The notes below the pieces were generated by a model, which was not told the DNA's origin, ran no database searches, and saw only the letters and a program-made list of their open reading frames with translations. DNA of 53,022 nucleotides, filler included, from Stramenopiles sp. TOSAG23-6 (Eukaryota), in assembly GCA_900128565.1 (NCBI GenBank). It is 3 parts of 3 records of this genome, joined end to end, with 100 filler letters (N's around TTAATTAATTAA, not from the genome) between each part and the next. Parts side by side here need not be neighbours in the genome. Positions count along the whole stretch, not along the records: positions 1 to 17,734 come from LT636076.1; positions 17,835 to 35,406 come from LT636077.1; positions 35,507 to 53,022 come from LT636078.1. The stretch is one strand, 5' to 3'. The position numbers were made by a program, and so were the translations under genes. Of the stretch, positions 718 to 53,022 are shown piece after piece (positions within the stretch are counted from its first letter, which is position 1; the number at the start of each line of letters is the position of its first letter).

Positions 718-3700
718 TCATTTGAAGAAAAACGTCGTACAATGAACACCCAACATTTAGAATCGTTGACAAAAGCAAAAACTTCGTCCTCAAAAGCTTT
801 GGATGATCTTCGTGAAAAAAATGTGTTGAAACTCCAAGAACTTCAAAGTAAGCACAATCAGGAATTAGAAAGTATACAAAAGTCACATTTATCTTCTGTC
901 AGTAAATTGAAGGAAATTCATGTTTGTTTTCATTGTTCATTTCAATTTCAAATTTATTAATTTTTTTTCTACCAAACGTAAAACCTAACAAATTGTAAAT
1001 GTAAGACACATTTTTTCACTAATACATGCTACTGAAATAAAAGCAAAAGATAAATCGTATACTGCAAGTAAGCAACATGAAACAGATTTGAAATTGGAAC
1101 TCGCGAGAGCAAAAGAAGCTCATGCTACACTACAATCATCTATCGAAGAAAAACATACAAAAGAAATGGATTTGTGTAAGTTGAATCACATTGCAGCATT
1201 GTCAGCGAAGGAGAAAGAATATTCTTTGGCATTAGCCGGTAAGAGTGATGCTATGAATGCTTCCCATTCTACACAAGTAGCAATTGCGGAAGCTCAACGA
1301 GTTTCTGCAGAAGAAGCTCAACGATTATCCGAGGAAGAGCTCACAACTTTAAAAAAGGATTATATTGTGGTCGAAGAACGTGCAATGACAGCAGAGGCAG
1401 AATTGGGCGTCGTTCGTGGCGAACGGGATACTTTTAAATGTCGTTATGAACAAGAAGCTGCGAAGCAACAGTCCCGTTTAAATGAGGCTGCTCAAACACA
1501 AGCAGCTGGAATTAAATCGGAGCGACATCTGAAGGAAGCTTTGGCAAAAGTTAATGAATTAGAAGATATGGTAGAATTGTTAACTTTAGAGAAAGAAGAG
1601 TGCATTGTTGAAAAAGAAGTCGCCGAAGAAGAAACAGCTGATAAACAAACTCGAGTTGAAGAACTAGAAGCTGAGCTGCTCGCTACAAAAACAAATCAAC
1701 AACAAGTAGCAATGTCCGTTGGATCTGGGAATGATCCTGATATACAGGCAATCACCACACAAAATCTTCAACTTCGAGAAGCATTGGGAAAGTTACACAC
1801 TCAGACGACTGCAAAAAAAGCAAGTGATGGTCGTATAATTCGTGATTTGGAGCGGAAAGTTGAATTATTGGAAAAGTTGAAATCTGAAGTTGAAAATTTA
1901 CGAAAAACGAAAAAACAAATGGAAACTGAAATGTCTGAGTTACGCGATATGGTTGACGAATCTGCTGCGTATGAAGAGTTAGTAGAAGATCTTTCAGAAA
2001 AGAATCTTGAGCTTGGTGACCGTGTCGCTGAGCTTGAACAAGCTGTGAAAGAAATGGAAGAAATGGCCGAAGTCGCTGATGAAACTGATGAAATGCAAAG
2101 AGAATTAGAAATTGAATTACGTGCAGAAATTTCAAAAAAAACGGAGCAGTTGCGTTTGCTTGTAGATAATTCTGTGCAAATGAAAAAAGAAATTGAAGAT
2201 AAATGTGATACTCTCGAACAATTTCGGTCTGCTCTTACAGCACTACAACTAGATCGCACTAATCTTCATGAACAAATGACAACTGTTAAAGATGGAGAAG
2301 CGCAACGTGAAGAGAAGATACAGGAAGTTCTGAGTGATCAGATGAGTTTATTATCTATCAAACATCGAGAAAGGCAAACGTATATTCAACTTGCAATGTG
2401 CCAAGTGGAGCTTTTAGAGGCAGAAGGACGCGCATCTCAACTTCAAGCATATCTTCCTCGTGAGTTGATTCAACGAGATATTCCATCATTGGAAATTTTA
2501 TTGTTGTTGGAGCGTTTATCTGGTAAAGTTGAGGTTTTTCTTTCAAAAGTGAATGAATATTCTGTGTCTCCAAAGCGAATTGAAATTGAGGTTTCATCTG
2601 GAAGTATTGGTATCGAAGAGCTTCAAAAGCTCCGAGATGGTTGCACCATTGGTGTGCTTCTCTTGAAATTGCAGCGAGGTACGACGATGATGAATAATCT
2701 TTTGGTAAACCCAGAAATGAGTATTGAATTATATGCGTCTCTATCTTCCGAATGTCGTCGTCCATTTACAGATGCGGAGGTTGTTGTAGATCAATTGCTT
2801 GCAGCTTTAATGGAGGGAATTCCTTCATTACATTTAAAAACTGAGTTAGATCGTGTGATACTTGGTATAGAAAAATTTATCTCAGATCATCAAAAGACAT
2901 TTGATAGCGTCAAAAGAAAACAAAATGTTAAGACTCCATCCCTTTTGAAATCTTCTTCTCTTCATGTGTTGTCTGCGACTGCTGGTTGTTATATTGGGTT
3001 AATTCGATTAAACAAGAATGATGAAATGTTACCACCAGGAGATGATGTAATGCCATTTATAGTACAAGCAAAAGACTTATTGCAATCTTTGAAAACTGAA
3101 TATATTAGTGTTTGGATGGAAGCGGTTCGCTTATCTCAATTGATAAAAGTATCGAATCGTTCTGATCAACTCTTTGTGTCACTATTATCGCTCGTATTAG
3201 AAACTCATCGCTTCGCTTCTTTGATGAATGATGCAGTGAATAATATTGTTAGTGGTACGGACAGTGATACTGGCTCTCCAAGTTGGAACATATTATTGGA
3301 AGACATTGGGAAATTAAATGACTCTGAAGTCACTGAAGAGGAATGTACCGATTTGAATGAAGACAATGAAAATAATGTTAGTGCACGTAAATATTGTGCC
3401 GTTGTACAGAATCGATTAAAACTACTCGCCAGTGAAATATCAAAGTTACAAGGTGATGCTATAGAGAGTGAAACTCAAACACAAAAGAAAACACAAAATT
3501 TGGCTCCTTGGAAACAACGCGCTGTTCGTACGAGGAGTAATATCGCCCAGGTTAGCACAGTCCAGTCGCAACTAGAAGTAGCAAACAAAACGATACAGAA
3601 TCATTTGAAGGATCTTCGTCTTGCGGAAAAATCATCACGGAAAAAAAATGTTCAATTGTCACGACTTGAAGGCCAATTAGCTGAGGCTGCAAATCTTACT

Positions 3701-4584
3701 ACCGAAGTAGCTGATTTGAAAGTAAAATTGGATGAGTCAATAAAAACATCCGCAGCCGAAGCAACTCAGTCAGAAGTTGCAATGCAAGCTCTTAGTGAAG
3801 AACTGGAAAATTTACAAATAAATAATCGCTCTCTCCGTGGAAAAATTAAAGCTGCAGGAATTACTGATGATACAGAAATATCAAAGGATGCACTTGGAGT
3901 TCATCAAAATCAAAACGGTAATGTATCAATGAGTGAGGCTCAACACCATGCGATGTTTGCAGCAATTCAACATGTTGGCAAGCAGTCCGCTAGATGGCGC
4001 CAACTTGCAACAAAATCAATGTTGTCTAAGTTACCACCTCTTCCTGCGCCTGTTAGAGCTGTACAAAGTCCATCTACTGTAGTACATCAGGCTTTGTCTG
4101 AAGTTCAGTCTTTACGAAAAGATTTGATTAAAAAACGAGCTGGTGCTAAGGTAATAGNTTTATNAAAAAGANATNCNAAAAACNATCTAGCTTACGTCAA
4201 CAAGTGAGTAGAAGAGATAACCAAGATAAGAAATTTCATAGAAATATGTCATATTTAAATATGGAATCTAAAATATCTTCAAAAGAATGGTGGATTCAAG
4301 AACAAACTCAGGCTGCGCAACTACTAATTCGATTTGATAAGGCAAAAACCAATGTCTGTAAAATTATTCGGAAAGTAAAGAATAAAAATGGATACACAGA
4401 TACGTTCCCTGCAGCTAGTTTTCCTGTTGATACAATGATAAATTCTGAAGTTTTGAGGAAAAATAAAAATTGTCCAATTATTGGAAGAGTTCGAATACCA
4501 TCATCATCTGCTAATTCACACGTGCTTCCGCTGACTGTGGATAGGACTGTTTTAAATCATCTCCATTTACTGTTGACAAAATAA
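1..4584 (+). CDS. DCTN1: Dynactin p150Glued, 5' partial; join(<1..921,1028..~4184, frameshift at ambiguous bases, ..4584)
   Basis: Coiled coil with p150 motifs LTLEKE..VAEE, QNLQLREALGKL, ELRDMVDESAAYEELVEDLSEKNLELGDRVAELE. ORFs 25..960 and 1088..4207 join in frame on removing 922..1027. The C-terminal ORF 4204..4584 is offset across Ns at 4158-4184. Confidence 0.85.
922..1027 (+). mobile_element. Non-canonical repeated intron, degenerate copy (GT..AT, 106 nt, phase 0)
   Basis: CAT|GTTTGT..ACCTAAC..AATACAT|GCT; removal gives KEIH-ATEIK in frame. Confidence 0.75.
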
Positions 4585-4701
4585 AAAATAACATCACATG
4601 GAGTTTTCTAGTATTGTTTTTGGAATACATTTTATATTACACCGCGTAACAAAACATATAATAAAAATCTTTCAAATTATAGTTTATACCAAAGAAAATA
4701 T

Positions 4702-7038: not shown

Positions 7039-9032
7039 TTAAAAGCAAGAAAGAAAAGGAGATTTATTTTCACCTTCCTCTTTTTCAAATATTGCACGAG
7101 CATCCTGTAACTCAGAGAATGGAATGTCTCGTCCTTTGTCTTCTGCATTTCCTTCGCCTTCGCCTTTTCGCATATTTTTAATTCGCACACACTGTTTCGA
7201 CCATTCATCCGGTGCTACATATGCACAATATGTTGCACCAGCTCTATCAGCATATTTGAATGCTTTTTTCGCATCTTTCTTTGGTTGTAACATCAAATCA
7301 ACAGTTGCTCCACCAGACCGTAATTTTGCCGCAATAGAAACAGCTGCTCCAATCATCTCTTTTGACCGAGGGGCAACACAGAAATCGACAGTTCTGGGTA
7401 AACTCGGCATAAGATTATGATCTTTTAGTAACTCCATTATGACACAGTCACCAAACCCAAATCCAACACATGGAACCACTTTTTTAGATCCATAAAGAGT
7501 TAATAACTTATCATATCGGCCACCACCACAAATAGCTCTGAGCTCACCGCGTCTATCGAAACATTCCCAAACACATCCAGTATAGTATGCTAAGCCTCGA
7601 ACAACTGAAGCATCAAAGACTAGATAATCATGAAAACCGTACGATTCTGTATTATAAAAAAAAATAAAATGAAATTGTAAAAAAAATGAGTACGCCGTTT
7701 GAAATAATAATAATAATAAATACACAATGAACAATGATTGTAAATAGATGGAGCGCAATAAAATTAGACCCACATCATACCATTTAAATAGTCTGTGGGT
7801 CCACTCAACATGCGCTAACTTAATGTATGCATCACTAGTAAGTCGATTGTGTATATGTATTTCACTATTCACTGGATGCACTGAAGCCTCACGGTGAACA
7901 ATGTCATACGACACGTCAACTGTCGCAAATGTAATGCAATTGTTGATTTGTTTCAACACCAATATAGAAAAACAAAAAACTAATTACTATGAAATAATTA
8001 GTAGTATAACGTACCTGCAAGAGTAAACAAAAGCTTCAATTCTGAAAGAGCTTCATCGTCAATCATTTCTCCAACTGTTGACTCTAGTTCTTCGATCGAT
8101 TGCGCCTCGAGAGCGCAGAGCATGTCATCTGAAGTTTCAGAGGGAACACCTACTTCGATTAACATTTCCTTTACAGCATCTGCACCAATTTTATCTAACT
8201 TGTCAATGATTACACAGACAGGTGCAAACATTTCATCACTAATTCCATAACTCTTCATTAGGCTTCCAAGAAATTTTCTAGAGTTAATTTTGATGCCGAC
8301 GATATCTGGACCAACCCCAAGACCGCGAAAAAAGGCACATATTGAAGCAAGTAGTTCTAATTCTGCCATGATACTGTCATCCCCTACAATATCCATGTTC
8401 CACTGATAATGTTCGCGCTTGCGTCCCCGTTGACAGCACTCAAATCTCCAACACTGTGCGACGCAAAACCACTTAAAGGGCAAAAGATCCTTAATTTCCC
8501 CAGTGGCCGTCTCTTGACGAGCCATAACCATACGTGCTAAAGAAGGCGTCATTTCAGGACGTAAAGTAACAGCTTTCCCATCTTTATCTGTAAAAGAGTA
8601 CATCTGTTCTGTAATTTCTTCTCCTGCTTTGCGTTTGTATAGCTCCTGGTGTTCAAGCACTGGGGCGTCGTATTGTGAAAAACCAAATGCGCGTCCAACT
8701 TTAGCAAAGTGCTCAAAAAGCCAATTGCGAACACGCATATCTTGAGGAAAAAAGTCACGCGTACCACTTGGAGGATCTAAATAATATGGTTTTACTTCAG
8801 TCATTACAGCTGCAACAATTCCTTTTTCAATATTTTTGTTCGAGAGCTTTTTTTTTGTGACACCGAGGCGCGTGCGAAGTGAATCAAAGAAGATAGTTTT
8901 AGCCTCTTTTTGGGCAGGTAACACTTTCATCTGTTCAGGTGTAGGTTTGCCTTTGCCAGCGTAGTCACACATGGCGACAATTTCGGACCATTTGCGACGC
9001 TCATCAGCCGTTACGACTAATTCTGTAGTCAT
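7039..9032 (-). CDS. HARS1: Histidyl-tRNA synthetase; join(9032..8015,7646..7039)
   Basis: PPSGTRDF, LRPEMTPSLAR, QRGRKREHYQWNMDI, VRGLAYYTG, GGGRYD, GFGFGD and an anticodon-binding domain; one canonical intron. Confidence 0.95.
7647..8014 (-). other. Canonical GT-AG intron (368 nt) in HisRS
   Basis: GCAG|GTACGT..AATACAG|AATCG restores LFTLAESYGFHDYL. Confidence 0.85.
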
Positions 9033-9411: not shown

Positions 9412-11090
9412 ATGAATACGGGGCCTCCGCCCCAGCAGCCGAAAGTGCTACCAGCAGATATAGTTGTAGTCAAGGTCGAAGCTCCTCATGGTGATAAGTA
9501 CTGCTTAAGTTCGGCTTCTGGTCGAATTTATTGGCCTTATAAGACATTAAAAGATTGCATTTATGGTAAAGTCAAAGCAGCAGTTGAATTAGTTCAAAGT
9601 CCCGATGAACCCGGTGTTTTTAATATTACCAAAACGTATGTTGCTATTAAACTTATTCATAAAAAGGGGGCGAATATAGGCCTTCCCATTTCAACAAAAA
9701 TGTTTACGTCCCACGCTGAGAATCCTGTCACAGAGACGGCATATCAACAATATCTATCAACCCCTGGTTATCCATACGTGGCAAAAGTTGTTGAAGCATG
9801 TGAAAATGCTGAGGCAATGTTTGTCGTAATTGAGTACTGCAATCAGGGCGAATTGTTTGATGTGGTACAAAGTCGAGGACACCTCGACGAGAAGCTTTGT
9901 AAACGCTTGTTTATGCAAATTGTGCTTGGTGTTCATTATATTCATAGTAAAGGAATTGTACACCGTGATTTGTCTCTTGAAAATGTCATGGTACACAACG
10001 GAGATGCAAGAATTATTGATTTTGGGATGGCTACTCCACTTCCAGCTGATGGTCTTTTAGAAGGTTTCAGAGGTAAAGTATATTATATAGCGCCAGAGGT
10101 ATTTTACCATAGATATTTAGGAAAATACAAGGGTCCACCGATAGATGTATGGGCCCTCGGCCCCATGCTTCATATTATGCTCGTTGGTGCTCCACCTTGG
10201 GAAAAGGCTTGGGTACAAGATCAGAGATTTATCCGAGCTATCAATAATAAGCTACACGTCACACTGGAAGAATGGGGTGTGGAATTGTCTGAAGACTGTA
10301 TTAACTTAATGCAAGCTATCATGCAAGCTAAATTTACCCTTAAAATTAATCAAGGTAAAGAGGAACGTGTATATGTATGTTTTATTTTTTTTCAAATTCG
10401 AATTTTTTTTTTAGTAAATTTTGTACCTAACGATTTTAATTTTTGAAATATTTTTCCAAAATACATGGTTTAACTAATAGAAGGCTTTCTTTAGAAAGTA
10501 TTTTAATGCATCCATGGTTAGTACCCGTCAGAGATCTAATACCCACACATTTGCGCTGCGTACTAGAAGCCCCTCGCATATCCTCTGATAATGACAGTAC
10601 TATTGCATGTAAACCGAATATTTCTCAAAATGTTCAAAATATAAATGATGGTATGAGTAAAAATGTCGCCGCTGGTTCAGATGAAACTGACAGTGGTCCA
10701 ATCTTGCCGTTATTTAAATCACATTCTGCAGTTTTGCATGCAGTAAATACATTTGAAACTATTGAAGATCTGATCTCGCTAATCAAGCGTCTTCCCCCAC
10801 CAGTTAACCCCAGTTTCCGAAAGATGTTAATAAAATTATTGGCTAATCATGATATGAGTGTTGTGACAACAAGAGGGAGAGTTCGACAGCTTTTGATTGT
10901 CATTGTTGGTTGTTTGGCAGACATACAAATATATAAAGGTTGGCTAGAGCAGCGAAAAGTAGAAGGTGCTCTTAGTCAGAATCAAAATACTGGCGAAGAT
11001 CTTTTTACTGGTGTTGACGAATCAGATAGAGTATTAATGCTTCAACGGTGGATTTCGTGGCTTACTCGCCGGCAAAACATTTCCACTTGA
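9412..11090 (+). CDS. CAMK-like Ser/Thr kinase; join(9412..10374,10467..11090)
   Basis: VAIK, HRDLSLEN, DFG, YIAPE, DVWALG; subdomain XI RRLSLESILMHPW is recovered after removing 10375..10466. Confidence 0.9.
10375..10466 (+). mobile_element. Non-canonical repeated intron (GT..AT, 92 nt, phase 0)
   Basis: TAT|GTATGT..TTGTACCTAAC..AAAATACAT|GGT; restores the kinase C-lobe frame. Confidence 0.85.
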
Positions 11091-14324: not shown

Positions 14325-17056
14325 ATGCCAAGGCGAGCTACTAGCATGAAGATTTATGGTCGGCGTCGACGAAAAAAGCAACAGCCTTTAAACAAGTATG
14401 TAACTACGTTAACTGCGTGTGACGCTTTTGACTCTCTGACACCTTCGCCAGCACCACCACCACTTAAACGAAGCCCCCTCTCCAGAGATCTTTCATCAAG
14501 GAAGAGAACTCCCGTCGTCATTCGAGATGATTCACTTGTCCCTGGACAATTGTTGTCTCCAAATTCCTCATTCCCAGTTTATATGGATAATAATATTGCA
14601 ACCCCGCAAACCCCCTCAAATAAACAGTTTCGGTACCCCAAAATGGCACCTGAGCGAAATCCCTTCGCACCGGAATTAAAATATTCACAACCGCTTCGCG
14701 ATCTGGGCCAACAGCCTCATCAATTAAGCAATAAGCCCATGTTAAACACTATGGATATGATTAATGTACTACGAAAAAATGGCGCACATTTATCGCGGAA
14801 ATACAAAGTTACCCCCAACAAGCTACATTCTCAACCTAGCAGTCAAGGATATACACAAGGAAACACGAAATCAATGAAAGGATATACACAAGGAAACAAA
14901 CGAAAGAGTCCGTTCACGACAAATAATTCTTTTCGACAAACTCGAAGTACTACAAACAAACGAAAGAGTCCGTTCACGTCTAACCCTAACCCTAATTCTT
15001 TTCGACAAACTCGAAGTACTACAAGACGACGACTTGAGAAATCTGCAGAGAATAATAATATGATGTCTAGTATACTACTCACACCTACGAAAAACACGAA
15101 AAAGAGTCGTTTGGAGATTCCCATAATCAATAAAAAAGTAACGCAAAACATTCAAAACATCCAAAACATCCAAAAAATGAAAATCGTCAAGAATTCAGTG
15201 AATTCAGACGATCCAATTCAAAATGATATCGAACAAATTATTATACCATCATCTATTGGTTCTATTGATCCAATTGATTCATCAATAATACAATCATCTA
15301 TTGGTTCTATTGATCCAATTGATTCATCATTGGTTGATTCGTCTTCGTTCTCAAGTAATCAAAAAAAACAAAAAAAAACATTACATTCAAAACCAGTTAG
15401 CTCCAGCACAACTCGGAGAACAAAAACAACTAAAACAACAAAAACAACAAAAACAACTAAAACAACTAAAACAACTAAAACAACAGTACAATCAAAAAAA
15501 AGAATCACAAAAAAAAAAAAGATTGAGTTTAATTCAAATGTGAGAAGAAATCATTTCAAAAAATGTAAATATCAATGGTCAGTTACAAAATGTCTTGATG
15601 GTTCAACGAAAGTTTTTGATTGGAACAACATGGAAAATTGCAGTACAACTTCGAATACAAAAAATGAAACAATTAAAGATTGGATTGTTCATGTACGCCA
15701 TATCATTTTTTTGTCTATATTTTTTTCGTACGAAATTTTGTACCTAATAACAAACATCTTGTAATATTTTTTCACAATACATGTACGCTATATCATTTCA
15801 TTTCAAATTGTTTTTTTTCCTGTGCATAATTCAATGTTTTGTACTTGAATTTTATACTTAATGAATTTCGAATTTGACATGTTTTTTTTCTATACAGAGA
15901 GGATTGTCGCCAGCTTTATCTACTCTATGGAATGCTCAACAAATGTATGTTTTATTTTATTTTATTTTTTTTTTCCGGTAAAAAAAAAATCGATTTTGGT
16001 TTTTATAAAAATTTTGTACCTAACAATTTTTTTTTAGATTTTTGAAATATTTTTCCAAAATACATTTTTGTGAAACTCAAAGATAAACTTAATACAAATC
16101 CAAGGTATAAAAGCATCAGGTCAAAAACTACCGGTGATGAAAAAAGGTGTGAAAAACGCATTCAACAATTGAAAGCTTTGAGAGTGAATATTGATCAATC
16201 ATGGCTCTATGGAGTGTTTAAGCTGGAAGGAATTTCAAAGATACAAAAAGAAGAAGAGATAGCTATAAAAACTTTGGAGTGTCCAGTGGAATTGCGCTCA
16301 GCATCGATCTGTTCATATGGTGGTGCATCCTCTTCAATACTATCTGAAAATTCACGTGTATTCTATATAAATCATATACAGAAACAAGCACAATATTATA
16401 AACGACAACATCAACAAAAACTGAATGTAATGTACAATAATACCGACATGACCAAAAAACCAAAGCAGCAGCAAAAACATGAAAATAAATCGAATGTTGG
16501 TTTGAGTAAGGAAATGAATCAAAGACAACAAATAAGAATAGAAAATGACTTTCTTGAAAAGAATTCGAATAAAAATGTTTATTCAAATACGCAAAACACC
16601 AATAAAAAGTCATTTTTTGATACTCCAGATCAAAATGAAAGCAAAACCAAATCAAATAGTTTTTTTTCTTCGTCACCTGTATTAGTCAATACAACACCAA
16701 TCGTAACATCAAGCTCAAATATAGAATCGAAAGAAATGATTGCAGATAAAAGAGATGAAAACCAAATCGTGCAATTACCTCTCAATGTATGTTTTATTTT
16801 TTTTCAAATTCGAATTTTGTTTTGTACGAAATTTTGTACCTAACAAATTTTATTTTTTTTTTTTAAATATTTTTCCAAAATACATGCCAATGTAAATTAT
16901 GCTAGTATTATAGAAAAGCAAAAAGTAAAAAACCAAAAAAGTGAAAATAAAATTATAGAAAAAACAATTGAAGAACTTAATTCGCCAATCAATGATCAAA
17001 ACCAAACGAATTCGGAAAGTTATAGTTATGGACATGATCCTATACGCTCAAGCACC

Positions 17057-17650: not shown

Positions 17651-17734
17651 GTATGTTTTATTTTTTTTTTTGTATGATGTTTTTTTCGTACGAAATTTTG
17701 TACCTAACGATTTTTTTTTGAAATATTTTTCCAA
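17651..17734 (+). mobile_element. Non-canonical repeated intron, truncated by contig end
   Basis: TAT|GTATGT..TTCGTACGAAATTTTGTACCTAAC..TTTTTCCAA, then gap. Confidence 0.8.
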
Positions 17735-17834: not shown

Positions 17835-17930
17835 TTTTTTTTTTTACCAAAAAANTCGATTTTTTTTCGTACGTAATTTTGTACCTAACAAATTTTAGTT
17901 TTTTTTTTTAAATATTTTTTCATAATACAT
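17835..17930 (+). mobile_element. Non-canonical repeated intron, 5' end lost in the gap
   Basis: TTCGTACGTAATTTTGTACCTAAC..CATAATACAT|CTTCC. Confidence 0.8.
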
Positions 17931-35640: not shown

Positions 35641-38600
35641 CTACAGATTAAAAAATATTGTTTTCGATCTTTGACCTTCAACATTATTTTTATACGCAGA
35701 TATATATATACCATACTTTCTAAATTTTTCTAGTCCTTCCAAAAGATACTTATGAAAATTAGTAGGACTGAAAACAACTGCATGATCGATCCTCCACCGT
35801 TTAGTGTCAACTTCCTCTATAAATATTGCAAATTTTGTTACAAATTGTGCTGACATTTTAAATGTTACCACTGCACCTAATTTTGAAACGTGCACAACTA
35901 CATTATTTGGTTTTGTAGAATGAAATTTCGTATCTAATGAATTTCGAATTTGTTGGGTGTCAACGTCTGACACTACTTCTTTGGCATTGTCCTTACGTTT
36001 GGTTTTATCATTGGTTTCATATCTATTTTTAAGCACCTGACCTACCCATGTAATATTCAATAAGGAAAAATCACTACGACCATATATATTTGAAGCAGTT
36101 ACACGAAAAGCGTATCTACGACCGAGTTGTAATCCATTGACCACAAGTGGGCTATTGAGTCCCTCGGATGCAACAACATCAGATATAAACACAGTATACA
36201 TGGTAATGGGGGCACTTCCATTTGATATCGGCTGACTAAATGAGACAATACCTCGATCTCCTTCACATTTTACGAATACATCTGTAGGAGGCAATGGAAC
36301 TGAAGAAACAAAAATATTCTTACTATTGGACATCTCACTTCCACCTGCAGAATTATACGCGCGAAGAGATACAGAATACATTTCATCAAGCAAAAGACCT
36401 AACTTTTCAATTTTATATGAAAGATCATTTGGGGCTGTACTTTTTGTAACTATCTCTACAAATGAAACATCCTCTTTTTTTTTTCTTATTATTATTGATA
36501 AAACGTATTTAGTTACAGCATCCCCACCATCATTAGTTGAAGGCTCAAAAAATACGACGATGCCAGATTGTGATTTAATTTGTTTGACACTCAAAATATT
36601 TGGTGCAAGAGGGACACCAAAAGGAATATACAATGATACTACATCACTTGATGGACCATGTCCAACAGAGTTGAAGGACTGCACAGTAAATAGACATCTA
36701 ACATCTCGAGGAAAATTTGGTATATCAATAATTGATGTCAAAGAAGTCTCCAGTGTTTTGGTAATTGTTACAGTGTTTTCTTCAACATAAGTGTGACCTT
36801 TATTTCGAAGGCGATCACATTTCCAATGTATAATATGTCCTAATAATTCTGTACTTGAAGATGGTTTTGGTACAATTAAATTTGTCTTGTGAAAAATTTG
36901 GACTCGCACGGTCGCGGGATCTTTTGAATCCGTCAAAAAAGAGGCTTCTACTTTATGTGCCTTCAATGGTAACTTTGTGTCAGACTTTGTGCATATACCT
37001 GATACTGTATTTTTATCATACAACCAGGATCCATGAGTTGATTTACCTTCATTTATTGCTGTTGCTTTAGACCACATTGCACATTTATTTGACATGCCAG
37101 GAATTATATATTCACCATTAAAATAAGTATAAACATAACACCAGTGGTACATATTACATAGCTTTGCACACAGTACACTTGATGAAGAATTTTGCCATTT
37201 ACCAATTGTCATTTCATCTTTAGCGTTTGCATTGAAATACATAACCTTTGAACAATTATCAGGCAATTCAGAATCTCGAGCATATTGACAATGACCAACA
37301 GTAGCACCATCCTGGGGAAACCATGAGTTTGAATCAAATCTATTGTGTGAAGTAGCTTCAACATCATCCCAAATAACACAACGCTGTTTCCATATATCAG
37401 CAATTTTTGAATGGCCGTTACCATGAAACGTAAACATTCGACATTGATTTTCTTTACAGTATTTGATACAGCCAGTAATGGATACATATTTTGGAAACAT
37501 AACTGGGTCTAATTTCTTAAAAAGTACAGCACTATGATTAAATGTGTATGTATTTTGGAAAAATATTTGAAAAAAACCCGTTAGGTACAAAATTTCGTAC
37601 GAAAAAACATCGAATTTGAAAAAAAATAAAACATACATGAACATTTTGGTGTTGCAGGTATAGCTTTAATTTGTCTAGAATGGATACTTCGGCCTACTTC
37701 ATTAATACTCGAGACATATACGAAATATTCTTTATCGTCTTGTAGATTTTCTATTATCCAGCCTTCATTTACTGGAGGAGCATTAGGTACATGAATATGC
37801 TGCATTTCACCAGATATCCCAAATTGATAAGATATTTGATACTTTTTAATCGGATTGCCACCATTGTGTAGAGGTGGTTCAAAGAAAACGTACAATATAT
37901 TAGATCCAGGAATTACTTTTACATTCATGGGTGCACCAGGTAGCGCAGGAGGTCTCTTTGATATTGATCGTTTTCCTCGTCCTAATTGATTTGATGCATC
38001 AATAAAGAATATATATGATTTATTGACTAATAATTCTTCTATATCAACTGGACTGCCAATTGTTTTTATTGTTTTTACATCAGTCTCACCCCGAGTCCAA
38101 AAGGTCACAAAATATTCTATAATAGGATAGCCACCATTGTATTCCGGTGGTTCAAAATAAACAGTAGTTTTCCCATACCCTGGTTTACTTCTTTGAATTG
38201 GAGTAATATGAGTAATATTTGGTTGACTCGGTGTTGAATATGTTGTCTTTACAAAAACATTATGAGATAGTTTACTCATACCAATGATATTAATAGCTCG
38301 TATAGTGATCTCATATATTGTGTTATTATCTAAATTTTTTATTAATACAGAATGATGTAAAGGATCAGCCGCTGTCGTTGAATTTGCTTTATTTTCTATA
38401 TTTGCTACATTTAAATGATTTATAATAGTATTTCTCTCTTTTGTATTCGTATAAATTATATAAGATGTGACTTCTCGGAGACCAAATGATTTTGGAACAT
38501 CGAAAAAAATCTTTACACTGTTTGATCGTGGTATTGCACGAAGATTTCGTGGAGGTGATAAATTGTGAAAATATATATACATTTGTTTTCGTTTTAAAAA

Positions 38601-41150
38601 CAATCATTAAAAATGAATAAAAAGAAATGTAGGTGCAACATTCATTTTTTGTACAAACATACATGGTACTGTGGGTTTACGAAATGGATTTAAGTATAAA
38701 TTCCGACGTCTTCCTTTTTTGTTTATCTGAAATTCAACTTGTCGAATCCATACATTAAATCCTTCTCCAGAAACGAAAATACTGCTGTCATCATGTATTG
38801 TGAAAAAAAAATATAAAATTTGTTAGGTACAAAATTTTTATAAAAAAAAAAAATAAATTCGAAATTGAAAAAAAAATAACATACACCTGTATCAATACTT
38901 TTTCCAGAATCTGCATATATTATTTGTTTTGTTCGTACGGTCACACCATCTTTATCTGGGATGCCTTCATCTAAATATACGACAAGTGACTTTGATTTAT
39001 GGGAATAAATACAACCAGCAGATTCCAATGTATTTTGGAAAAATATTTCAAAAAAATATCGTTAGGTACAAAATTTACTATAAAAAAAAACTCATACAAA
39101 AAAAAAATAATACATACATGAGTCGACACTTCGATGATGAGATGCAAATTGATCCATTGGTGAATCTTCCAGTTCATCAAAACAGCTACTTTCAAGCATC
39201 GTGCGATTAAATATCCCGAAATAATTTCCATTTGTAGAAGAAAACATTATTTGATTATATGGAACATGATCAAATCGACGACTAAAACTATTTTGAGATT
39301 CAGGGTCGTCTTCAAAATCACCATGTATTGTAGAAAAAAATATTTTTAAAAAATTCGTTAAGTACAAAATTTCGTACGAAAAAAAAAATAAATTCATTAT
39401 GAAAACGTACATACTCTTCAGAACCATTGAGTGCATCAGATGCAATATGCCACTTTGGATATGCTGGGGAAAAGTGCAAATACAATGGTAATTCTGATGG
39501 AGAATACAAAGTATCCATTAGTGTCATCGTAGACATTTTTGATACATTATTGTTTTGTATTTTACGTAATATCATACCATTCTCAATGCCTTCATTTTCA
39601 GCTTTGGAGTTTTCAATTACAGACGTTACTACGAAGCCATATGAATCCGTGGATTCAATAGTACATCCTATATCAAGGATACCGGTAGGTGAATTTATTT
39701 CAACTTCAATGAAACTAGTACTAGAAAAACGAAACGACGTGTCATTATTATNATCCTTATTATTATTATCAAACATATCAAAATCTGTTAAATGTGCGCG
39801 CCGGACAAGAGCCCATCCACCACCATCTAGTGTACCATCAGCTGCACTACCCGTTAAAGGAATCGTTGGAGTAGTAAAATCCATAATAAAATACGGTTTG
39901 GCACATTCTAGGTAACTAATGTCCTGACATGGTTTTGGAATCTTTGTTGAACAAATGAGTAATGCAAAATCGGAATGCAAAGCTCCTCCTTCCAGCCCAT
40001 TGACAGAGATTTCCCCCCACGTTCCTGGAGTAGCAACATTTAACTGATCAACATCAATTGAAGAAGAATGGCATAATCGATCACTATGTTTTGGTTTGCC
40101 TTCAATAGCATAAATAACAGTTGGTAATGGAAATTGTGGATCACTATCAGGTACGAAATACTTGAAAACAACAAATGAACTTCTTATTCTCTTCACGCGA
40201 ACACCACGTACATTTTGTGGTGGTCTTTCCACTTTACCAGAAAGACAAAAATTGGGACGTTTACAACTTAAATCAACCGGGTCAGGAAAATCATCCCAAA
40301 CACGATTTGCATTAATTCTTTTTTTTACCCGAATTCCCGACATGGACATTATTTCCCAGCAATATTGCCATCCTTCAAATGCACCATCTTGCCAATAAAA
40401 TTTGCGGATTAAAATATTTTCAAAACCAAATGAAGCTTTGCCTTCTCTTTTACGCTGTTCTTGCTCTTCACGAAAAAAACTATTTTCTTCGTTTTTTGCA
40501 CGCAAATCTTCTTCTTTAGTAAATTTTCTACTCGATGTAGTTTGACTCTCATCATACCGAGCTCTCTTTTCAGGATCCTTTAAGATTTCATACGCTTCAG
40601 AGATTTTAATGAACATTTCATTTGCATATTCTTTATCTTCACCTGGTTTGATTTTATCAGGATGCCATCGTAGCGCAAGAGTTTTATACGCTTTTTTGAT
40701 TTCTTTTAATGTTGCCGTTTTCTCTACCCCAAGTATTATATACGCATCATCATCATCATCATCCATTTTATCCATTTTTTCCTTTGTGACTTCGACATCT
40801 TCTTCAATACGCTGAAGGAATATTTGTAAATATTTTGGACCTCCTTCTGTCATCCAACCTAATAATTGTTTGGCATTGATACAATCATATTTTGCCTTTT
40901 CCCAGAAATTCATTTGTAAATAAATTTGTGCACGAATTAGGTGTAATTCTGCACATATTTCACGATTATCCTGATCAACATTTACGAGAGCTCCACTTCC
41001 AAGAAAAATGTGAATAGCTTTACTACAATCTTCTATCCCCTCATTTGTAACTTTATTTCCATTTTTAATTATCTCGTGTCTGACTTTACAAGATTTTACT
41101 AATAAATTTTGTCTCGTAAGAAATGAAATATGATTACCTCCTAAAAGTTG
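35641..41150 (-). CDS. TPR + DnaJ + PDZ-like + FN3/PAN-like multidomain protein, 5' end unresolved; exons ~41150..39411, 39322..39118, 39027..38885, 38792..38663, 38557..37637, 37547..35641
   Basis: [23 protein letters not shown]-domain; FN3 starts [38 protein letters not shown]; all five junctions keep frame. Confidence 0.8.
37548..37636 (-). mobile_element. Non-canonical repeated intron (GT..AT, 89 nt, phase 1)
   Basis: TCAT|GTATGT..GTACCTAAC..AAAATACAT|AC gives KCSYTFNH. Confidence 0.85.
38558..38662 (-). mobile_element. Non-canonical repeated intron, diverged (GT..TTTAT, 105 nt, phase 1)
   Basis: CCAT|GTATGT..GCACCTAC..CACAATTTAT|CA gives the FN3 start TVPSPPRNL. Confidence 0.8.
38793..38884 (-). 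mobile_element. Non-canonical repeated intron (GT..AT, 92 nt, phase 0; upstream exon ends GT)
   Basis: GGT|GTATGT..GTACCTAAC..CAATACAT|GAT. Confidence 0.85.
39028..39117 (-). mobile_element. Non-canonical repeated intron (GT..AT, 90 nt, phase 1)
   Basis: TCAT|GTATGT..GTACCTAAC..AAAATACAT|TG gives VDSLESAG. Confidence 0.85.
39323..39410 (-). mobile_element. Non-canonical repeated intron (GT..AT, 88 nt, phase 0)
   Basis: TAT|GTACGT..GTACTTAAC..CAATACAT|GGT gives NGSEEYGDF. Confidence 0.85.
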
Positions 41151-45769: not shown

Positions 45770-45862
45770 GTATGTTTTATTTTTTTTCAAATTCGAAATT
45801 TTTTTTCGTACGAAATTTTGTACCTAATGAGTTTTTTTTTGAAATATTTTTCCAAAATATAT
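45770..45862 (+). mobile_element. Non-canonical repeated intron at a chimeric junction (93 nt)
   Basis: GATAT|GTATGT..GTACCTAAT..AAAATATAT|TTT; phase-2 donor against phase-0 acceptor. Confidence 0.75.
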
Positions 45863-46808
45863 TTTGGTGTCAAATATCTTGCAAAAACGTATAAAGTGCA
45901 ATTGAGATGGGTGAATACAAATAGAATGCTTGCGTTTGAAATTCTTGCACATGCAATAATAGTACGTTTTTTCCCCAAAACACATTTTTTTTCTCTATTT
46001 GTTTTTTTCATAGACAATTTTGTACCTAATAAAAAAAATATTTCAAAAAGAATATTTTTCACAATAATTGCACAAGGAGAAAGTCTTACAAATAATACAG
46101 TTCCATTTGACTGGCCATTACTTCCGTGTGAATGTATGTTTTCAGGATCAAATTTAAATTCATTTTTTTTCGTACGAAATTTTGTACCTAACAAAAAACA
46201 ATTGAAAATATTTTCCCAAAATTTATGCGATCTAGTACTAAACATGTGTCGCTATATTGAACGACGGTATCTTCGAGAAATATTGATTAATGAAACCTCA
46301 GAAGATGATCTGTCNAAATCATTTAGTACTGCTAAGAGTACTTGGTGTGAACATGGATGGGTAGACATGGTTGAGAATGAAGAAGCAAAAATAGATGTAA
46401 TTTTTTATCATTCATTTATTTTTTTTTTGTTTTGTAAAAAAGATTTTGTAAAAAAGATTTTGTACCTAACGAATACAATTTGTACAACCAAAAAAAACAA
46501 TATTTTTCACAAAACATTCAAAAGAGGAAAACAGTAAAAAAATAGAAAATGATATTCGGAATACTGGATCAAACGTAGTAACAAATGCCACAATGAAATA
46601 TCGCGACAATACTAAAACAAAAAATCACTCTTTCAAACAGTATTTATCAGCAGATTCTACGGAAAGTATAGAAATGTCTTATACAATTAGTGATCAAAGA
46701 CCGAAACTGAAGTTGAGAAGACGTGCTTCTTTGAAAGAGGCAGCTATTTGTGCAGATGCAATGTTTAATAACATAGCAAAAGCTTCACAGAAATCTAAAA
46801 CAAAATAA
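45863..46808 (+). CDS. 3' part of an uncharacterised gene; exons 45863..45961, 46070..46133, 46227..46396, 46518..46808
   Basis: Continuous frame after removing three repeated introns, ending SQKSKTK*. Confidence 0.55.
45962..46069 (+). mobile_element. Atypical repeated intron copy (108 nt, boundaries uncertain)
   Basis: CAATAATA|GTACGT..GTACCTAAT..CACAATAATT|GCA; CAATAAT direct repeat near both ends. Confidence 0.55.
46134..46226 (+). mobile_element. Non-canonical repeated intron (GT..TTTAT, 93 nt, phase 1)
   Basis: GAAT|GTATGT..GTACCTAAC..CAAAATTTAT|GC. Confidence 0.75.
46397..46517 (+). mobile_element. Non-canonical repeated intron (GT..AT, 121 nt, phase 0)
   Basis: GAT|GTAATT..GTACCTAAC..CAAAACAT|TCA; joins in frame to ORF 46593. 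Confidence 0.8.
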
Positions 46809-49322: not shown

Positions 49323-51215
49323 ATGTATACCAACATGATTCGGTTTCTAGTAAAAAGTGTGCCATCATTTCTAAAGGGCGACAAGAAATGGCTTCATATT
49401 AGGCAAGGTATACATGGCCAAACATGTAGGACTAAGAATAATAATAATGATATTGATGATGAAAATTTTCTTCTCCTACTATCCAATTCGCAGGAAACAT
49501 CTCCCGAAGTTCTTTCAGCCTTTGCAGTACGCGTGAAGGAAACAATACCGAATATTGATGCGCTATGCGCCGTGAATCTATTGAATTCAGACGAGAGTGT
49601 AATTATAGATGTTCGATCACCTTCTGAGTTTTTATCAGGTCATATATGTAACGCATTCAATGTTCCTTTATTTTCAGATAAAGAACGTGAATGCGTGGGT
49701 ACAACTTTTAAGACACGAAGTCGTGAGAGTGCTCTGACTGAAGGTATGGATATTGTTAGGCCGAAATTGTCAAAATTGAAAGAGAAGGTGGCGGAGCTTC
49801 TGGGCGGTCAGCGCAAAGTTGTTATCTACTGTTCGAGGGGTGGCATGCGATCTCACTCTTTTGCGTTTCTACTTCAACGCCGTTTGCCAAGTGCAAAAAC
49901 ATTTGTATTAACTGGTGGATACAAAAGCTTTAAAAGATGGGCGCGTGAGATGTACTGCTACGTGCCAAATAGTGCCGGATACTCCTGGGCTCGAGAAAAC
50001 ACACATGTGTTGAAAGAAGCTGACATGACCACAACTCACATGGATAGTGACATTGAAAGTGATCGTGCACTACTTCAATTTGTGAAAGGTAAAAAGCTGA
50101 AAAAGTTAATTCAATTACGCGAAGCGGTAAAGAATCCGAAATACATGGAAAGAATGAACAAAAAGAGAGAGCAAAACGTTAGAAGAAAGAACTTGAAAGG
50201 AGAAGACAACACTATGCTGCTGCAAGATGGTGCAGCTCGTCGCGCTGCAACTAATGAGAAAAGGTTAAAACAATTCGAAGGGGATTTGATTACTGAAGTA
50301 AAGAAAAATTTAGCTAAGAAAAAAAAAGAGAAACAAGAAGAAGCACTAGCTGAAGCCCAATGGCCGATAAACTATCCTTCAAAACAACCAAAAGTTATCA
50401 TTATTACAGGCAGAACTGGTAGTGGGAAAACAAGGATTATTCATGCTCTAAGAGACAAACTTGGAAAACAAGTCTTAGATTTAGAAGGAATAGCTATGCA
50501 CAATGGCTCAGCATTTGGGTCAATAGGCCATGGGAATCAGCCAACAAAACAGCAATTTATGAATAATATTGCCATTGAATGGTCGCGTTTAAATGAAAAT
50601 GAGGTTGTATTTATCGAAGATGAAGGGCCTAATATTGGCCAGATTAACTTACCGCTTGGTTTATATCGTTTAATGCAAACCGCGCCTATCATTATCAAGC
50701 TTGTTGTACCGCGTGCTTCTCGTCTCTCAATTTTAATTCAAGATTATGTATGTTTTATGTTTTTTCAAATTCAAATTCGAATATTTTTTATAGTAAATTT
50801 TGTACCTAACGATTTTTCTTTCAAATATTTTTCCAAAATACATGTAGGAGCTGCAGATATAAATCGTGATGAAATGACATCAATAGAGTATGCAAATAAC
50901 ATTAAAATCAGTAAACCATCTGCTGATTGGTTCGAGAAAATGGCTAATGCAACTCGAACATTAGAACGTAGACTTGGACGTGAGCGTTGCAATGAAATGC
51001 TTGAATTACTCGCTGGAAGTAATTTTAGAGATTTTGCAGACAAGGCTTTACATTATTATGATAGACTTTACGATAAACAAATATTCAGAGAAACTAGAAC
51101 TAGTGGCGGTAGTGTCATGGTAGACGTTGTAGTTGATCCTGCATGCACTGATATGAATATTGAAGAGGTTGCAAAAATGGTTATTAAAGAAGTTGACAAA
51201 TTAAATCAAAACTGA
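49323..51215 (+). CDS. selU: tRNA 2-selenouridine synthase (SelU/MnmH)-like; join(49323..50747,50844..51215)
   Basis: Rhodanese DVRSPSEF..GHI..NVPLF, YCSRGGMRS, GGYKSF; P-loop GRTGSGKT, LDLEGIAMHNGSAFG, FIEDEG, YYDRLY. Confidence 0.88.
   Translation: MYTNMIRFLVKSVPSFLKGDKKWLHIRQGIHGQTCRTKNNNNDIDDENFLLLLSNSQETSPEVLSAFAVRVKETIPNIDALCAVNLLNSDESVIIDVRSPSEFLSGHICNAFNVPLFSDKERECVGTTFKTRSRESALTEGMDIVRPKLSKLKEKVAELLGGQRKVVIYCSRGGMRSHSFAFLLQRRLPSAKTFVLTGGYKSFKRWAREMYCYVPNSAGYSWARENTHVLKEADMTTTHMDSDIESDRALLQFVKGKKLKKLIQLREAVKNPKYMERMNKKREQNVRRKNLKGEDNTMLLQDGAARRAATNEKRLKQFEGDLITEVKKNLAKKKKEKQEEALAEAQWPINYPSKQPKVIIITGRTGSGKTRIIHALRDKLGKQVLDLEGIAMHNGSAFGSIGHGNQPTKQQFMNNIAIEWSRLNENEVVFIEDEGPNIGQINLPLGLYRLMQTAPIIIKLVVPRASRLSILIQDYVCFMFFQIQIRIFFIVNFVPNDFSFKYFSKIHVGAADINRDEMTSIEYANNIKISKPSADWFEKMANATRTLERRLGRERCNEMLELLAGSNFRDFADKALHYYDRLYDKQIFRETRTSGGSVMVDVVVDPACTDMNIEEVAKMVIKEVDKLNQN
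50748..50843 (+). mobile_element. Non-canonical repeated intron (GT..AT, 96 nt, phase 0, stop-free in frame)
   Basis: TAT|GTATGT..GTACCTAAC..AAAATACAT|GTA. Confidence 0.8.
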
Positions 51216-51334: not shown

Positions 51335-51351
51335 TAGGGTTAGGGTTAGGG
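51335..51351. promoter_or_regulatory. (TTAGGG)~3 motif upstream of the gene at 51500
   Basis: TAGGGTTAGGGTTAGGG, intergenic. Confidence 0.45.
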
Positions 51352-52528: not shown

Positions 52529-52610
52529 AATATAAAATAAACATTTTTATAAGGAAAAACTGTGCTTTATTTGTAAAAACATCAAATCTCCACTACAACA
52601 TACAAGATAT

Positions 52611-52970
52611 TTAGGAGTTAAGCCAAGGATGTTTTAAACACTCTTCAGCAGTTGCGCGTTTTTTAGACGAGTATGTCAAACATTTTGTGAGAAAATCAGC
52701 CATTGGCTTCGCTTCCTCAATTAATAGATCGTATTTTTCATGCAAGACTTGCTCTAAAGGCCAAAATCGCAATTTGCGTATATTGCGCAATTCTCCTTTT
52801 CTGTTAAAAAATTTCTTCGCAAATTTTCCGTGAAGAGCTACATTTTTTGGACATTTCCCAAGAAGTTCTAGAGCCTGCGCGAGGTGATCATCATCTCTCG
52901 AAAAACCTGCACCTCCTTGAGGGTCAAAGAGCAAATCACCTGTAGCTAGTTCAAATACAAGACACGCAAC
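52611..52970 (-). CDS. SRPK: SR-protein kinase, last exon
   Basis: ACLVFELATGDLLFDP..FSRDDDHLA..ELLG, LRNIRKLRFWPL.VL.EKY, RATAEECLKHPWL. Confidence 0.92.
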   Translation of the reverse strand, partial: VACLVFELATGDLLFDPQGGAGFSRDDDHLAQALELLGKCPKNVALHGKFAKKFFNRKGELRNIRKLRFWPLEQVLHEKYDLLIEEAKPMADFLTKCLTYSSKKRATAEECLKHPWLNS

Positions 52971-53022
52971 ACGTATTGTGAAAAAATATTTCAAAAAAAA
53001 ATCGTTAGGTACGAAATTTCGT
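52971..53022 (-). mobile_element. 3' half of a repeated intron ending ..AATACGT
   Basis: ACGAAATTTCGTACCTAAC..CACAATACGT|GTTGCG. Confidence 0.8.

Follow-up and report, generated by a model that had tools for sequence, protein, structure and literature searches.

Twenty-one related GT-AT inserts in the genes of a marine stramenopile as a probable family of transposon-like introns

Introduction

The AG at the end of an intron is among the most conserved signals of eukaryotic genes. In three contigs of Stramenopiles sp. TOSAG23-6, joined by N-spacers (positions 17735-17834 and 35407-35506) into the 53,022-nt stretch analyzed here (the window), unrelated genes are interrupted by short inserts that start with GT and end with AT. 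A sequence-only reading had taken 21 of these inserts as one transposon-derived intron family spliced at a YAT acceptor. This raises two questions: are the inserts introns and, if they are, by which machinery and at which borders would they be removed?

Results

One repeat family in a single orientation

The three contigs hold 21 copies of one repeat family, 18 of them complete and three (17651, 17835, and 52971) cut by contig ends. With the 18 complete copies as its basis, a profile found 20 places at E<1e-5, all at positions named in the sequence-only reading, and no antisense copy in the window at E<1e-3. The remaining copy, 38558-38662, is a diverged member of the family. The 13-mer TTTTGTACCTAAC, allowing up to two mismatches, occurs 24 times in the window vs. 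2.43 times expected, and 0/100 shuffles reached 24; 20 of these matches fall inside family copies and the other four are chance-like. Profile and motif count thus bear out the claim of 21 related copies, sense to their hosts, on three contigs. Pairwise identity among the copies has a median of 71% and a maximum of 94%, and these similar, intron-like sequences are scattered over at least nine different, unrelated genes (kinase, tRNA 2-selenouridine synthase [SelU], cullin-like, DnaJ/FN3, SRPK-like, and others). Every one of the 21 copies is sense with respect to the flanking reading frames, for which we calculate a chance of 2 x 0.5^21 (about 1e-6); this one-sidedness points to a strand-specific process at the RNA level. 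Ns are scattered through the assembly and contigs stop within the repeat, so local misjoins are possible.

As had been described, the complete copies are 88-121 nt long and begin with GT (18/18). A is found at +3 and G at +5 in 17/18 each, giving a U2-type donor (GTRNGT type, G at +1 and +5) that usually reads GTAYGT. A branch-like CTAAY motif is present in 16/18 copies, its A lying 30-48 nt before the end (73 nt in one copy), and is followed by a T-rich tail, so that the predicted branch site and pyrimidine tract also agree with the U2 type, in which CTRAY lies about 18-50 nt ahead of the acceptor. The U2-type acceptor YAG was found in none of the complete copies (0/18 end in AG): the last dinucleotide is AT in 18/18, and positions -3 and -4 are variable (13/18 each). 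The upstream exon ends in AT at 16/18 complete copies, or 17/19 when copy 17651 is included, the same figure as reported before, and the AT acceptor therefore looks like a duplicated 2-bp target site. All three intron phases are represented, again as claimed. The termini are inverted over a short stretch (GTAT(G)TTTT vs. AAAATAC), and neither an empty site nor an autonomous element was found; when 10 copies were folded, seven had a z-score above -1, i.e., no better than shuffles, and only a 4-bp GUAU/AUAC helix formed in some copies.

Removal of the copies and the flanking reading frames

For 14 of the 18 complete copies, excision from GT to AT puts the frames on either side directly in register. 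On the plus strand of the first contig, a diverged copy at 922..1027 (106 nt, phase 0, GTTTGT..ATACAT) interrupts a coiled-coil gene whose spliced model runs through 1367 codons without an internal stop, and the copy at 10375..10466 (92 nt, phase 0) interrupts a protein kinase gene with a stop-free spliced model of 546 codons. The copies at 15945..16065 (121 nt, phase 2), 16787..16885 (99 nt, phase 0), and 17456..17547 (92 nt, phase 0) follow on the same strand, as does 17651..17734, which loses its 3' end to the contig end. The second contig carries, also on the plus strand, 17835..17930, with its 5' end cut by the contig start, and 18247..18354 (108 nt, phase 2), which ends in TTTAT. On the minus strand of the third contig, 37548..37636 (89 nt, phase 1) lies in a DnaJ/FN3/PAN gene; 38558..38662 (105 nt, phase 1) is diverged, lacks the 13-mer, and precedes an FN3 start (..PTVP|SPPRNL); 38793..38884 (92 nt, phase 0) has an upstream exon ending in GGT; and 39028..39117 (90 nt, phase 1) and 39323..39410 (88 nt, phase 0) complete the group. 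Its plus strand has copies at 46134..46226 (93 nt, phase 1; an in-frame AG is also present 9 nt downstream), 46397..46517 (121 nt, phase 0), and 50748..50843 (96 nt, phase 0, in the SelU gene). The minus-strand copy 52971..53022, whose 5' part is beyond the contig end, precedes the C-terminal exon of an SRPK-like kinase.

The four other complete copies, all on the plus strand, depart from the simple rule. The copy at 15693..15782 (90 nt), earlier listed like the others, sits directly 5' of a GT-AG intron (15783..15897, plus strand, ending in CTATACAG); this intron has a weak family likeness (nhmmer E 0.04), and the first ~16 nt of the copy are similar to its start. For the copy at 18478..18573 (96 nt), the open frame needs a 3' site at 18569 (..CATAAT|), which gives a model of 485 codons without a stop, vs. 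15 stops with 18573. The copy at 45770..45862 (93 nt) in a short cullin-like gene likewise needs an AT 4 nt upstream, at 45858 (..CCAAAAT|), for the frame and for a conserved Tyr. The copy at 45962..46068 (107 nt) is one base off, its frame requiring 108 nt (45961-46068 or 45962-46069). The claim that precise removal restores the frames thus stands for 14 copies and fails in its simple form for these four, and the borders given earlier need correction at 18478, 45770, 45962, and 52971, the last ending in ACGT and not ACAT. Nine complete copies have a length that is not a multiple of 3, and the frame is restored exactly in eight of them. Seven gene models with one to five family introns run to 402 to 1742 codons with no internal stop after removal, the largest (1742 codons) across five copies; in six of the seven this relies on the three kinds of departure (the GT-AG intron at 15693, the upstream AT at 18478 and 45770, and the one-base shift at 45962).

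Junction homology covers three of the 18 complete copies, and alignment of the host proteins to relatives supported the proposed junctions. For SelU, tblastn with the relative P0020 (53% identical) left a gap of 32 residues, exactly the 96-nt insert, and the joined ..LLQDY|VGASNINRDE.. aligned without indel. The kinase relative P0002 (69%) has one continuous ORF through the site of copy 10375, with the junction placed to within one residue. At copy 45770 the AT site gives RRD-IY-F.., in agreement with the conserved VY/MY of cullin relatives. Conserved motifs are therefore restored as proposed in SelU and at the cullin-like Tyr, and with a difference of one residue in the kinase. The insert is missing from P0020 and P0002 at the same sites, so that at the two sites compared the positions are lineage-specific, which fits recent gain.

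Ordinary introns, copy number, and sequencing runs

Two canonical introns were verified, 15783..15897 and a 368-nt intron of the histidyl-tRNA synthetase gene (7647..8014, minus strand, GTACGT..TAATACAG) whose removal restores ..VFDASVVRGLAYYTG. Both end in ATACAG (CTATACAG and TAATACAG), one base different from the family end ATACAT. In the gene models built here, with these two canonical introns verified and 21 family copies, the earlier ratio of about 7:1 is roughly right.

In DNA run X1, 11213/119919 contigs fall on a 17.5-kb stretch of this sequence, and element bins have ~1000 times the depth of unique bins. Such a depth implies thousands of family copies in the genome, a number at which genes could not work unless the copies were removed. 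An independent seawater DNA run likewise contains the 45770 insert, whose border is crossed by X3 record 13. In two metatranscriptome runs, contigs pass unspliced from exon into element at two borders (X9 record 25, 38662-38838; X7 record 19, 46470-46640), and no spliced joint was found among the 15 joints listed of those in the runs (616 more lie beyond these). The element-to-exon depth ratio is no lower in the RNA runs than in the DNA runs, as would be expected from DNA carry-over or from unspliced RNA. In addition, X7 record 22 covers a region between divergent genes.

Discussion

We favor, with a probability of about two in three, a transposon-like introner family excised by the major spliceosome at a YAT acceptor, a reading drawn from the sequence of the copies and their hosts. 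The splicing machinery of this cell probably accepts an unusual intron end, and the copies are best explained as a single mobile introner family, MITE-like and residing in the nuclear genome of a marine stramenopile of the MAST-3 type. Each copy would come with a donor (GTAYGT), a branch site (CTAAY, mostly inside TTTTGTACCTAAC), and a T-rich tract of its own. It would insert at an AT target, which is then duplicated, so that the upstream AT becomes the last two exon bases and the downstream AT the last two intron bases. The major (U2-type) spliceosome would cut the pre-mRNA at |GT and after ..A(C/T)AT|, with YAT instead of YAG as acceptor. Its second catalytic step must then tolerate U for G at the last intron base while keeping A at -2, because the family end is one base off the ordinary one. 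The AT direct repeat and the short GTAT/ATAC inverted ends fit a transposon origin; together with the single repeat family and the insert-free relatives they agree with that much of the earlier proposal. The YAT splicing part of it is favored by the GT donor, the branch motif, and the restored frames and homology, and disfavored by the two unspliced RNA-run borders, the lack of a spliced joint among those listed, and the undiminished element-to-exon depth ratio in the RNA runs. Copy 15945 also counts against it: a decoy T9-AG lies 14 nt past the branch A, where its use would give a stop, and should tempt a spliceosome that also uses AG. The frame miss at 45962, the other AT used for two copies, and the GT end of the truncated 52971 were counted on the same side, as were the one-residue difference at the kinase junction, the coverage of three of the 18 complete copies by junction homology, and the possible misjoins. 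Somewhat less firmly, but still as more likely than not, most introns of this MAST-3 lineage genome, in the thousands, may be AG-less; a U2-type spliceosome that reads a classic donor and branch would then routinely complete the second step on ..ACAU|, and the acceptor would be just the duplicated AT target of the transposon.

The same elements might be introns of another kind. Removal by the minor (U12-type) or a hybrid spliceosome, known to tolerate varied 3' ends, would account for the likeness of the family donor GTATGTTTT to GTATCTTT at all positions except +5, and ACCTAAC is one base from the U12 branch CCTTAAC. We consider it unlikely: the U12 donor [G/A]TATCCTT was not found among the complete copies, which have GTATGT or GTACGT with T/C variable at +4 and, in 17/18, the U2-type G (not C) at +5. 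U12 branch sites mostly lie 10-20 nt from the 3' end. Compared with the U12 branch TCCTTAAC, ACCTAAC at 30-48 nt from the end is within the quoted limit of about 45 nt that the classic motif may reach, and far from the 9-12 nt of Physarum. Marginally less improbable is a shift of both borders two bases to the left, which would turn the copies into AT..AC introns (ATGTATGT...AATAC) and leave the mRNA unchanged at every copy with an exon-terminal AT and an element-terminal ACAT. AT-AC is an accepted splice pair, the shift is possible in 11/18 complete copies, and the truncated 52971, ending in ..AATAC|GT, fits AC better than AT. However, 7/18 copies would then end in TT, CC, AT, AA, or TA; 38793 would start with GT, its upstream exon ending in GGT, which makes the shift impossible there; the supposed AC positions vary (13/18), whereas the AT after them is invariant (18/18); and ATGTATGT does not fit the AT-AC donor consensus of either the U12 or the U2 type.

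Ordinary handling would need no altered acceptor: copies would be spliced GT-AG to downstream AGs or retained, and the proteins would simply carry deletions or insertions, the assumption behind the public gene model. An in-frame AG does occur among the first four in 8/18 copies, SelU has a fifth AG that the database model P0019 uses, three copies stay open in frame if retained, and the RNA-run contigs with unspliced borders would be expected. We nevertheless give this little credence, as a usable AG is missing from the first four in 10/18 copies, the first AG past the branch motif is in frame in 2/18 only, and a retained copy would disrupt the frame or run into a stop in 15/18. Those AGs that are usable are found at no constant distance (9 to 87 nt) and remove residues conserved in relatives; in P0019, 15 residues are deleted, nine of them identical in P0020, and the public SelU model also drops a coding segment as a false intron. 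Least probable of all is that the copies are removed from DNA, by precise excision between AT repeats like that of an internal eliminated sequence (IES), or not at all, leaving dead genes or an amplification or assembly artefact. The direct repeats at the flanks recall ciliate IESs, single-cell assemblies are error-prone, contigs end in repeat, and the metagenome contig L076 is chimeric. DNA excision would be indifferent to strand, yet all 21 copies are sense, which disfavors a ciliate-type IES; complete donor and branch signals are present in the copies, the frames around them are intact and conserved, and the 45770 insert recurs in the independent seawater run.

The preferred reading, a GT-AT introner family, can be compared with known systems. 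Introners are reported from Micromonas, Aureococcus, and many aquatic protists (PMC11282704; PMC12130899). As in Micromonas and Aureococcus, a multi-copy MITE-like family would make introns in unrelated genes at lineage-specific positions, with at least one splice signal brought by the element and the other splice site coming from target duplication. In those accounts the co-opted site is a canonical AG (in Micromonas the target site duplication, TSD, gives the 3' AG), whereas here it is a duplicated AT, and AG ends none of the copies. Such a family would escape surveys built on annotated splice sites of the familiar kind. In Fritillaria borealis, non-canonical introns derive from MITEs (Henriet et al., 2019, as summarized in PMC11282704), and divergent U2AF paralogues bind non-canonical 3' ends (PMC13326754). 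Like the gain proposed here, that of Fritillaria is a mass gain of transposon-derived introns, with terminal inverted repeats (TIRs) and TSDs, acceptors that include AT (AG-AT), and removal by a modified U2 machinery; in Fritillaria the donor, too, is non-canonical (AG-AC, AG-AT), with very diverse boundaries, whereas here donor and branch follow the U2 textbook pattern and the departure is confined to the last base. The host here is a stramenopile, Fritillaria a tunicate. The non-canonical repeated introns of Amoebophrya and the introners of Polarella (PMC11282704) are also invasive elements of marine protists, intronic, flanked by TSDs and bearing TIRs, and handled by a tolerant spliceosome; as summarized there, they have highly variable boundaries and 3-5 nt TSDs, in contrast to the uniform GT..AT rule, and U1 snRNA is apparently absent from Amoebophrya, whereas the donor here is strongly U1-type. 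Physarum (bioRxiv 10.1101/2020.10.12.336362) shares GT-AT as a recurrent boundary pair and a greatly expanded intron class; its non-canonical U12-type introns have a U12 donor ([G/A]TATC[C/T]TT) and place the branch site 9-12 nt ahead of their end, neither of which is seen here. The nonconventional introns of euglenids and hemistasiid diplonemids (PMC12621601; PMC11282704) also lack an AG end and have TSD-like border repeats and a likely MITE origin, but are described there as without GT and a U1-complementary donor and with stable end pairing; assignment to the euglenid type was rejected, GT being invariant and folding weak (z-score above -1 in 7/10). Among these systems, the GT-AT family is a further variant beside the known non-canonical introners of Fritillaria and Amoebophrya.

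A genome with thousands of introns that combine an intact donor and branch with an AT end would isolate the reading of the last base in the second catalytic step. If our reading is true, nature would here offer its cleanest example of 3' splice-site recognition altered at one base only, and thousands of such introns would form a natural test set for factors such as U2AF1, Prp8, Slu7, and Prp18. In the study of intron origins, it would count as a further case of an odd splice site explained by transposon target duplication. Gene models of these uncultured marine stramenopiles are affected, as in the public SelU model with its 15 real residues deleted; if the reading holds, current models of these abundant ocean grazers would be systematically wrong, and the protein sets of ocean surveys would consequently carry many truncations and frame errors.

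Insert Family and Host Genes

We counted 24 matches of the 13-mer TTTTGTACCTAAC at ≤2 mismatches, where 2.43 would be expected and where 100 shuffles never gave as many; 20 of the 24 fall in copies of one family of AT-rich inserts. The ends were fixed for 18 complete copies, 88-121 nt in length, and three further copies, named like the others by their start coordinates (17651, 17835, and 52971), are cut by contig ends. Searching the window with a profile built from the complete copies gave 20 places with E<1e-5 and none in antisense orientation, and 21/21 copies are sense to the flanking frames. The multi-copy family claimed in the sequence-only reading was therefore borne out. Copy 38558 is a diverged family member. 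The pairwise identity among copies has a median of 71% and reaches 94% in the best pair, so the family is not brand new. The only antisense-like profile match, 39 nt at 35907-35945 (+) within an FN3/PAN exon (E 0.005), is probably due to chance.

All 18 complete copies begin with GT and end with the dinucleotide AT. A at +3 and G at +5 are each found in 17/18 copies; TAA of a branch-like motif is invariant in the family alignment, and CTAAY itself is present in 16/18. Near the 3' end, AA occupies positions -7/-6 (17/18 and 18/18, respectively), and positions -4 and -3 are variable (13/18 each). The upstream exon ends in AT in 17 of the 19 copies with a visible 5' end, the same figure as previously claimed. 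Two short perfect palindromes, AAATTCGAATTT and TTTCGTACGAAA, lie inside the element (e.g., copy 16787-16885), and several folds of family copies show a 6-bp hairpin (GUACGA/UUGUAC) whose end lies immediately upstream of CUAAC.

The window is AT-rich (27-41% G+C per 2-kb window) and consists of three contigs separated by N-spacers (17735-17834 and 35407-35506); single Ns are scattered along it. Long eukaryote-type reading frames are densely packed and include protein kinase, carbamoyltransferase, WW/IQ, FN3+PAN, DnaJ, RhoGEF+FYVE, rhodanese/SelU (tRNA 2-selenouridine synthase), PP2C, HisRS, a WD40 protein, ribosomal protein L13, and a cullin N-terminus. One exon matches part of a EukProt record, labeled by its name as a MAST-3-type stramenopile assembly, at 100% identity; the remaining best named protein matches are stramenopile or protist records. 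The 957-residue frame at 11147-14020 (-) contains carbamoyltransferase N and C domains (NodU/CmcH type) in a eukaryotic context, its N-terminal 500 residues having no Pfam match. The cullin-like gene (45189-46805) is short: Pfam Cullin positions 1-165 are present, the other 455 profile positions have no counterpart in the window, and the gene runs on for ∼200 divergent residues, with four family copies within 750 nt. A 32-nt sequence at 19626-19657 (-), located 44 nt downstream of the stop of an enolase-like frame, has perfect small-intron signals (GTATGT..TACTAAT..TTATAG) and may be a 3'-UTR intron or a chance occurrence.

Proposed Insert Removal and Reading Frames

GT..AT removal joins both flanking frames directly in 14/18 complete copies, and retention leaves an intact frame in only 3/18. 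Among the 9 complete copies whose length is not a multiple of three, 8 restore the frame exactly upon removal. Seven gene models using these borders, with 1-5 copies each and spliced lengths of 1367, 546, 996, 485, 1742, 402, and 635 codons, are free of internal stops. The earlier claim that precise removal restores frames holds for the 14 direct cases and needs qualification at the following copies. In copies 18478 and 45770 the frame failed at the listed end, but it works with an AT four bases upstream (..CATAAT ending at 18569 and ..CCAAAAT ending at 45858, respectively); with the latter end, copy 45770 gives RRD-IY-F, and the corresponding residues of cullin relatives are SRD-VY-EEDF or SRH-MY-EQDF. 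A chimeric assembly was dropped as an explanation of the frame trouble at these two copies because the upstream AT yields stop-free models and the conserved Tyr; it is a possible cause for copy 45962, in which the frame is one base off. Copy 15693 abuts a GT-AG intron (15783-15897) head-to-tail with no exon between them, and the frame is kept by both together. The first 16 bases of the two are nearly identical (GTACGCCATATCATTT vs GTACGCTATATCATTT), and the arrangement at 15693-15897 could have arisen by insertion into the intron donor accompanied by local duplication, or by an insertion truncated at its 5' end. Translational bypassing of the inserts was rejected in view of the full spliceosomal signals in the copies and their occurrence in all phases.

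Alignment of host proteins across the junctions agreed with the proposed removal. The alignment of a SelU relative (P0020, 53% identical) to the window is interrupted by a gap of exactly 32 residues, equal to the 96-nt SelU insert (50748-50843), and the flanks of the junction read QDY/VGA on both sides. In a kinase relative (P0002, 69%), one frame spans the kinase site (10375-10466), continuous save for one residue that differs beside the junction. Both related organisms thus lack the insert at the corresponding site. The kinase and SelU searches found no near-identical protein spanning a junction in the protein collection, and the FN3 exon search among longer proteins returned only 2 distant bacterial-type FN3 proteins, useless for junction tests.

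Choice of the Putative 3' Splice Site

In 2/18 copies, which is no better than chance, the first AG past the branch motif keeps the frame; in 10 of the 18, none of the first four AGs is usable, and the usable AGs sit 9-87 nt into coding sequence. The SelU gene provides an example in P0019, the public database model of the window's own gene, which has a GT-AG intron reaching the fifth downstream AG instead of GT..AT. This model drops 15 residues after QDY, 9 of them identical in P0020, and also removes a second, long coding segment between YCYVPN and QWPINYPSK (window 49215-51215); both stretches are coding in the window and in P0020. Similar distortion of this assembly's gene models is probable at every site occupied by a family copy.

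With AT at the end of both exon and insert, the borders can also be read as AT..AC, which yields the same mRNA in 11/18 copies. This reading fails in 7/18 (the exon ends in GGT at 38793, for instance), and it would place the splice site on variable bases and leave the invariant AT as mere exon. The ordinary HisRS intron (368 nt) ends in TAATACAG and its removal restores VFDASVVRGLAYYTG; a second verified ordinary intron ends in CTATACAG. The family end AATACAT is the same word as the ordinary intron end, with T replacing the final G. Copy 15945-16065 contains a T9-AG that follows the branch A by 14 nt and precedes the AT end by 28 nt, and whose use would lead to a stop after 12 codons. Either this strong decoy acceptor is passed over or the gene loses some output to it, and scanning for simply the "first AG or AT" is thus insufficient as a rule. 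An intron-end helix serving as a ruler for the 3' site was rejected: folds were no better than shuffles in 7/10 copies and no compensating changes were seen, nor did the folds of these 10 copies contain a conserved structure able to act as a ruler.

Proposed Origin and Splicing

Judging from these signals, we favor GT..AT splicing of the family by the major spliceosome, with a probability of about two in three. The copies would be MITE-like introners, the element proper being GTAT...ATAC with short inverted ends; it would insert at AT and duplicate it, and the second AT would become the acceptor. Removal is ascribed to the major spliceosome because the donor and branch are U2-type. In published structures of the post-catalytic spliceosome, the branch adenosine is paired with the A at -2, and the first and last G of the intron are paired with each other; given these pairings, keeping the A and replacing G by U would be the mildest possible departure. 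Mobility by reverse splicing may be considered in place of transposition, as it would likewise yield sense-only copies, and the 5' part of copy 15693, which resembles the start of the neighboring intron, is a poor fit to simple cut-and-paste. The interpretation given in the sequence-only reading, a transposon-derived intron family spliced at a YAT acceptor, is partly supported, strongly so at the level of sequence.

In Micromonas introners the duplicated target likewise supplies the acceptor, but their target yields AG (PMC11282704) and the target here yields AT. Fritillaria has transposon-derived AG-AC and AG-AT introns, with divergent U2AF paralogs that bind odd 3' ends (PMC11282704, PMC13326754); Amoebophrya and Polarella have non-canonical transposon-derived introns with a tolerant spliceosome (PMC11282704). 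GT-AT is found among U12-type introns of Physarum (10.1101/2020.10.12.336362), and nonconventional introns of euglenids and diplonemids have neither GT nor AG (PMC12621601, PMC11282704). In none of these systems, as described, does a textbook donor and branch go together with an acceptor that is uniformly AT. No mention of the family was found in the literature searched, including passages of MAST genome papers; the words "splice," "repeat," and "transposable" are absent from the main text of a single-cell MAST study (PMC5778133), and the Incisomonas paper, in the passages searched, gives repeat and DNA-transposon percentages and nothing on introns. Surveys of introners take annotated introns as their starting point and test unfamiliar splice sites with RNA data, and would therefore have missed this family.

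Metatranscriptomes, Metagenomes, and Copy Number

Two metatranscriptome runs (X7, share 0.07; X9, share 0.05) and two DNA runs (X1 and X3) were placed on 35507-53022 only. No spliced joint was found among the joints listed (15, with 616 further), where the table was swamped by cross-joins between repeat copies and uncovered parts are uninformative. One RNA-run contig extends unspliced from a point 46 nt within copy 38793-38884 across the following exon, another crosses from inside copy 46397-46517 into its exon, and loose contig ends at other loci show the same unspliced pattern. Element contigs in the RNA runs amount to ∼14% of the number in X3, in line with the 7-10% of unique sequence covered, as estimated from the contigs listed; one RNA contig bridges the space between two divergent genes. 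The pattern looks like DNA carry-over or unspliced RNA, and it neither shows nor excludes splicing.

Among 119 loci matched in metagenomes by a gapped pattern that was too loose, one real family copy was found. This contig (L076:1-1076) is chimeric, with ∼190 nt consisting of a B-family DNA polymerase-like exon ending in ..AACAT plus the family copy, the remainder being bacterial-looking sequence with a sequencing adapter at the end. In the viral collection, 28 matches were obtained, all attributable to chance and none a family copy.

In the small DNA run X1 (94% of sampled words), 11213 of 119919 contigs fall on the 17.5-kb stretch 35507-53022, and the depth of element bins is about a thousand times that of unique bins. 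The depth pattern recurs in the independent seawater DNA run X3, which also reaches across the border of copy 45770. If a compact genome has thousands of copies, as this depth implies, most of its genes would contain them, and such abundance in itself argues for their removal.
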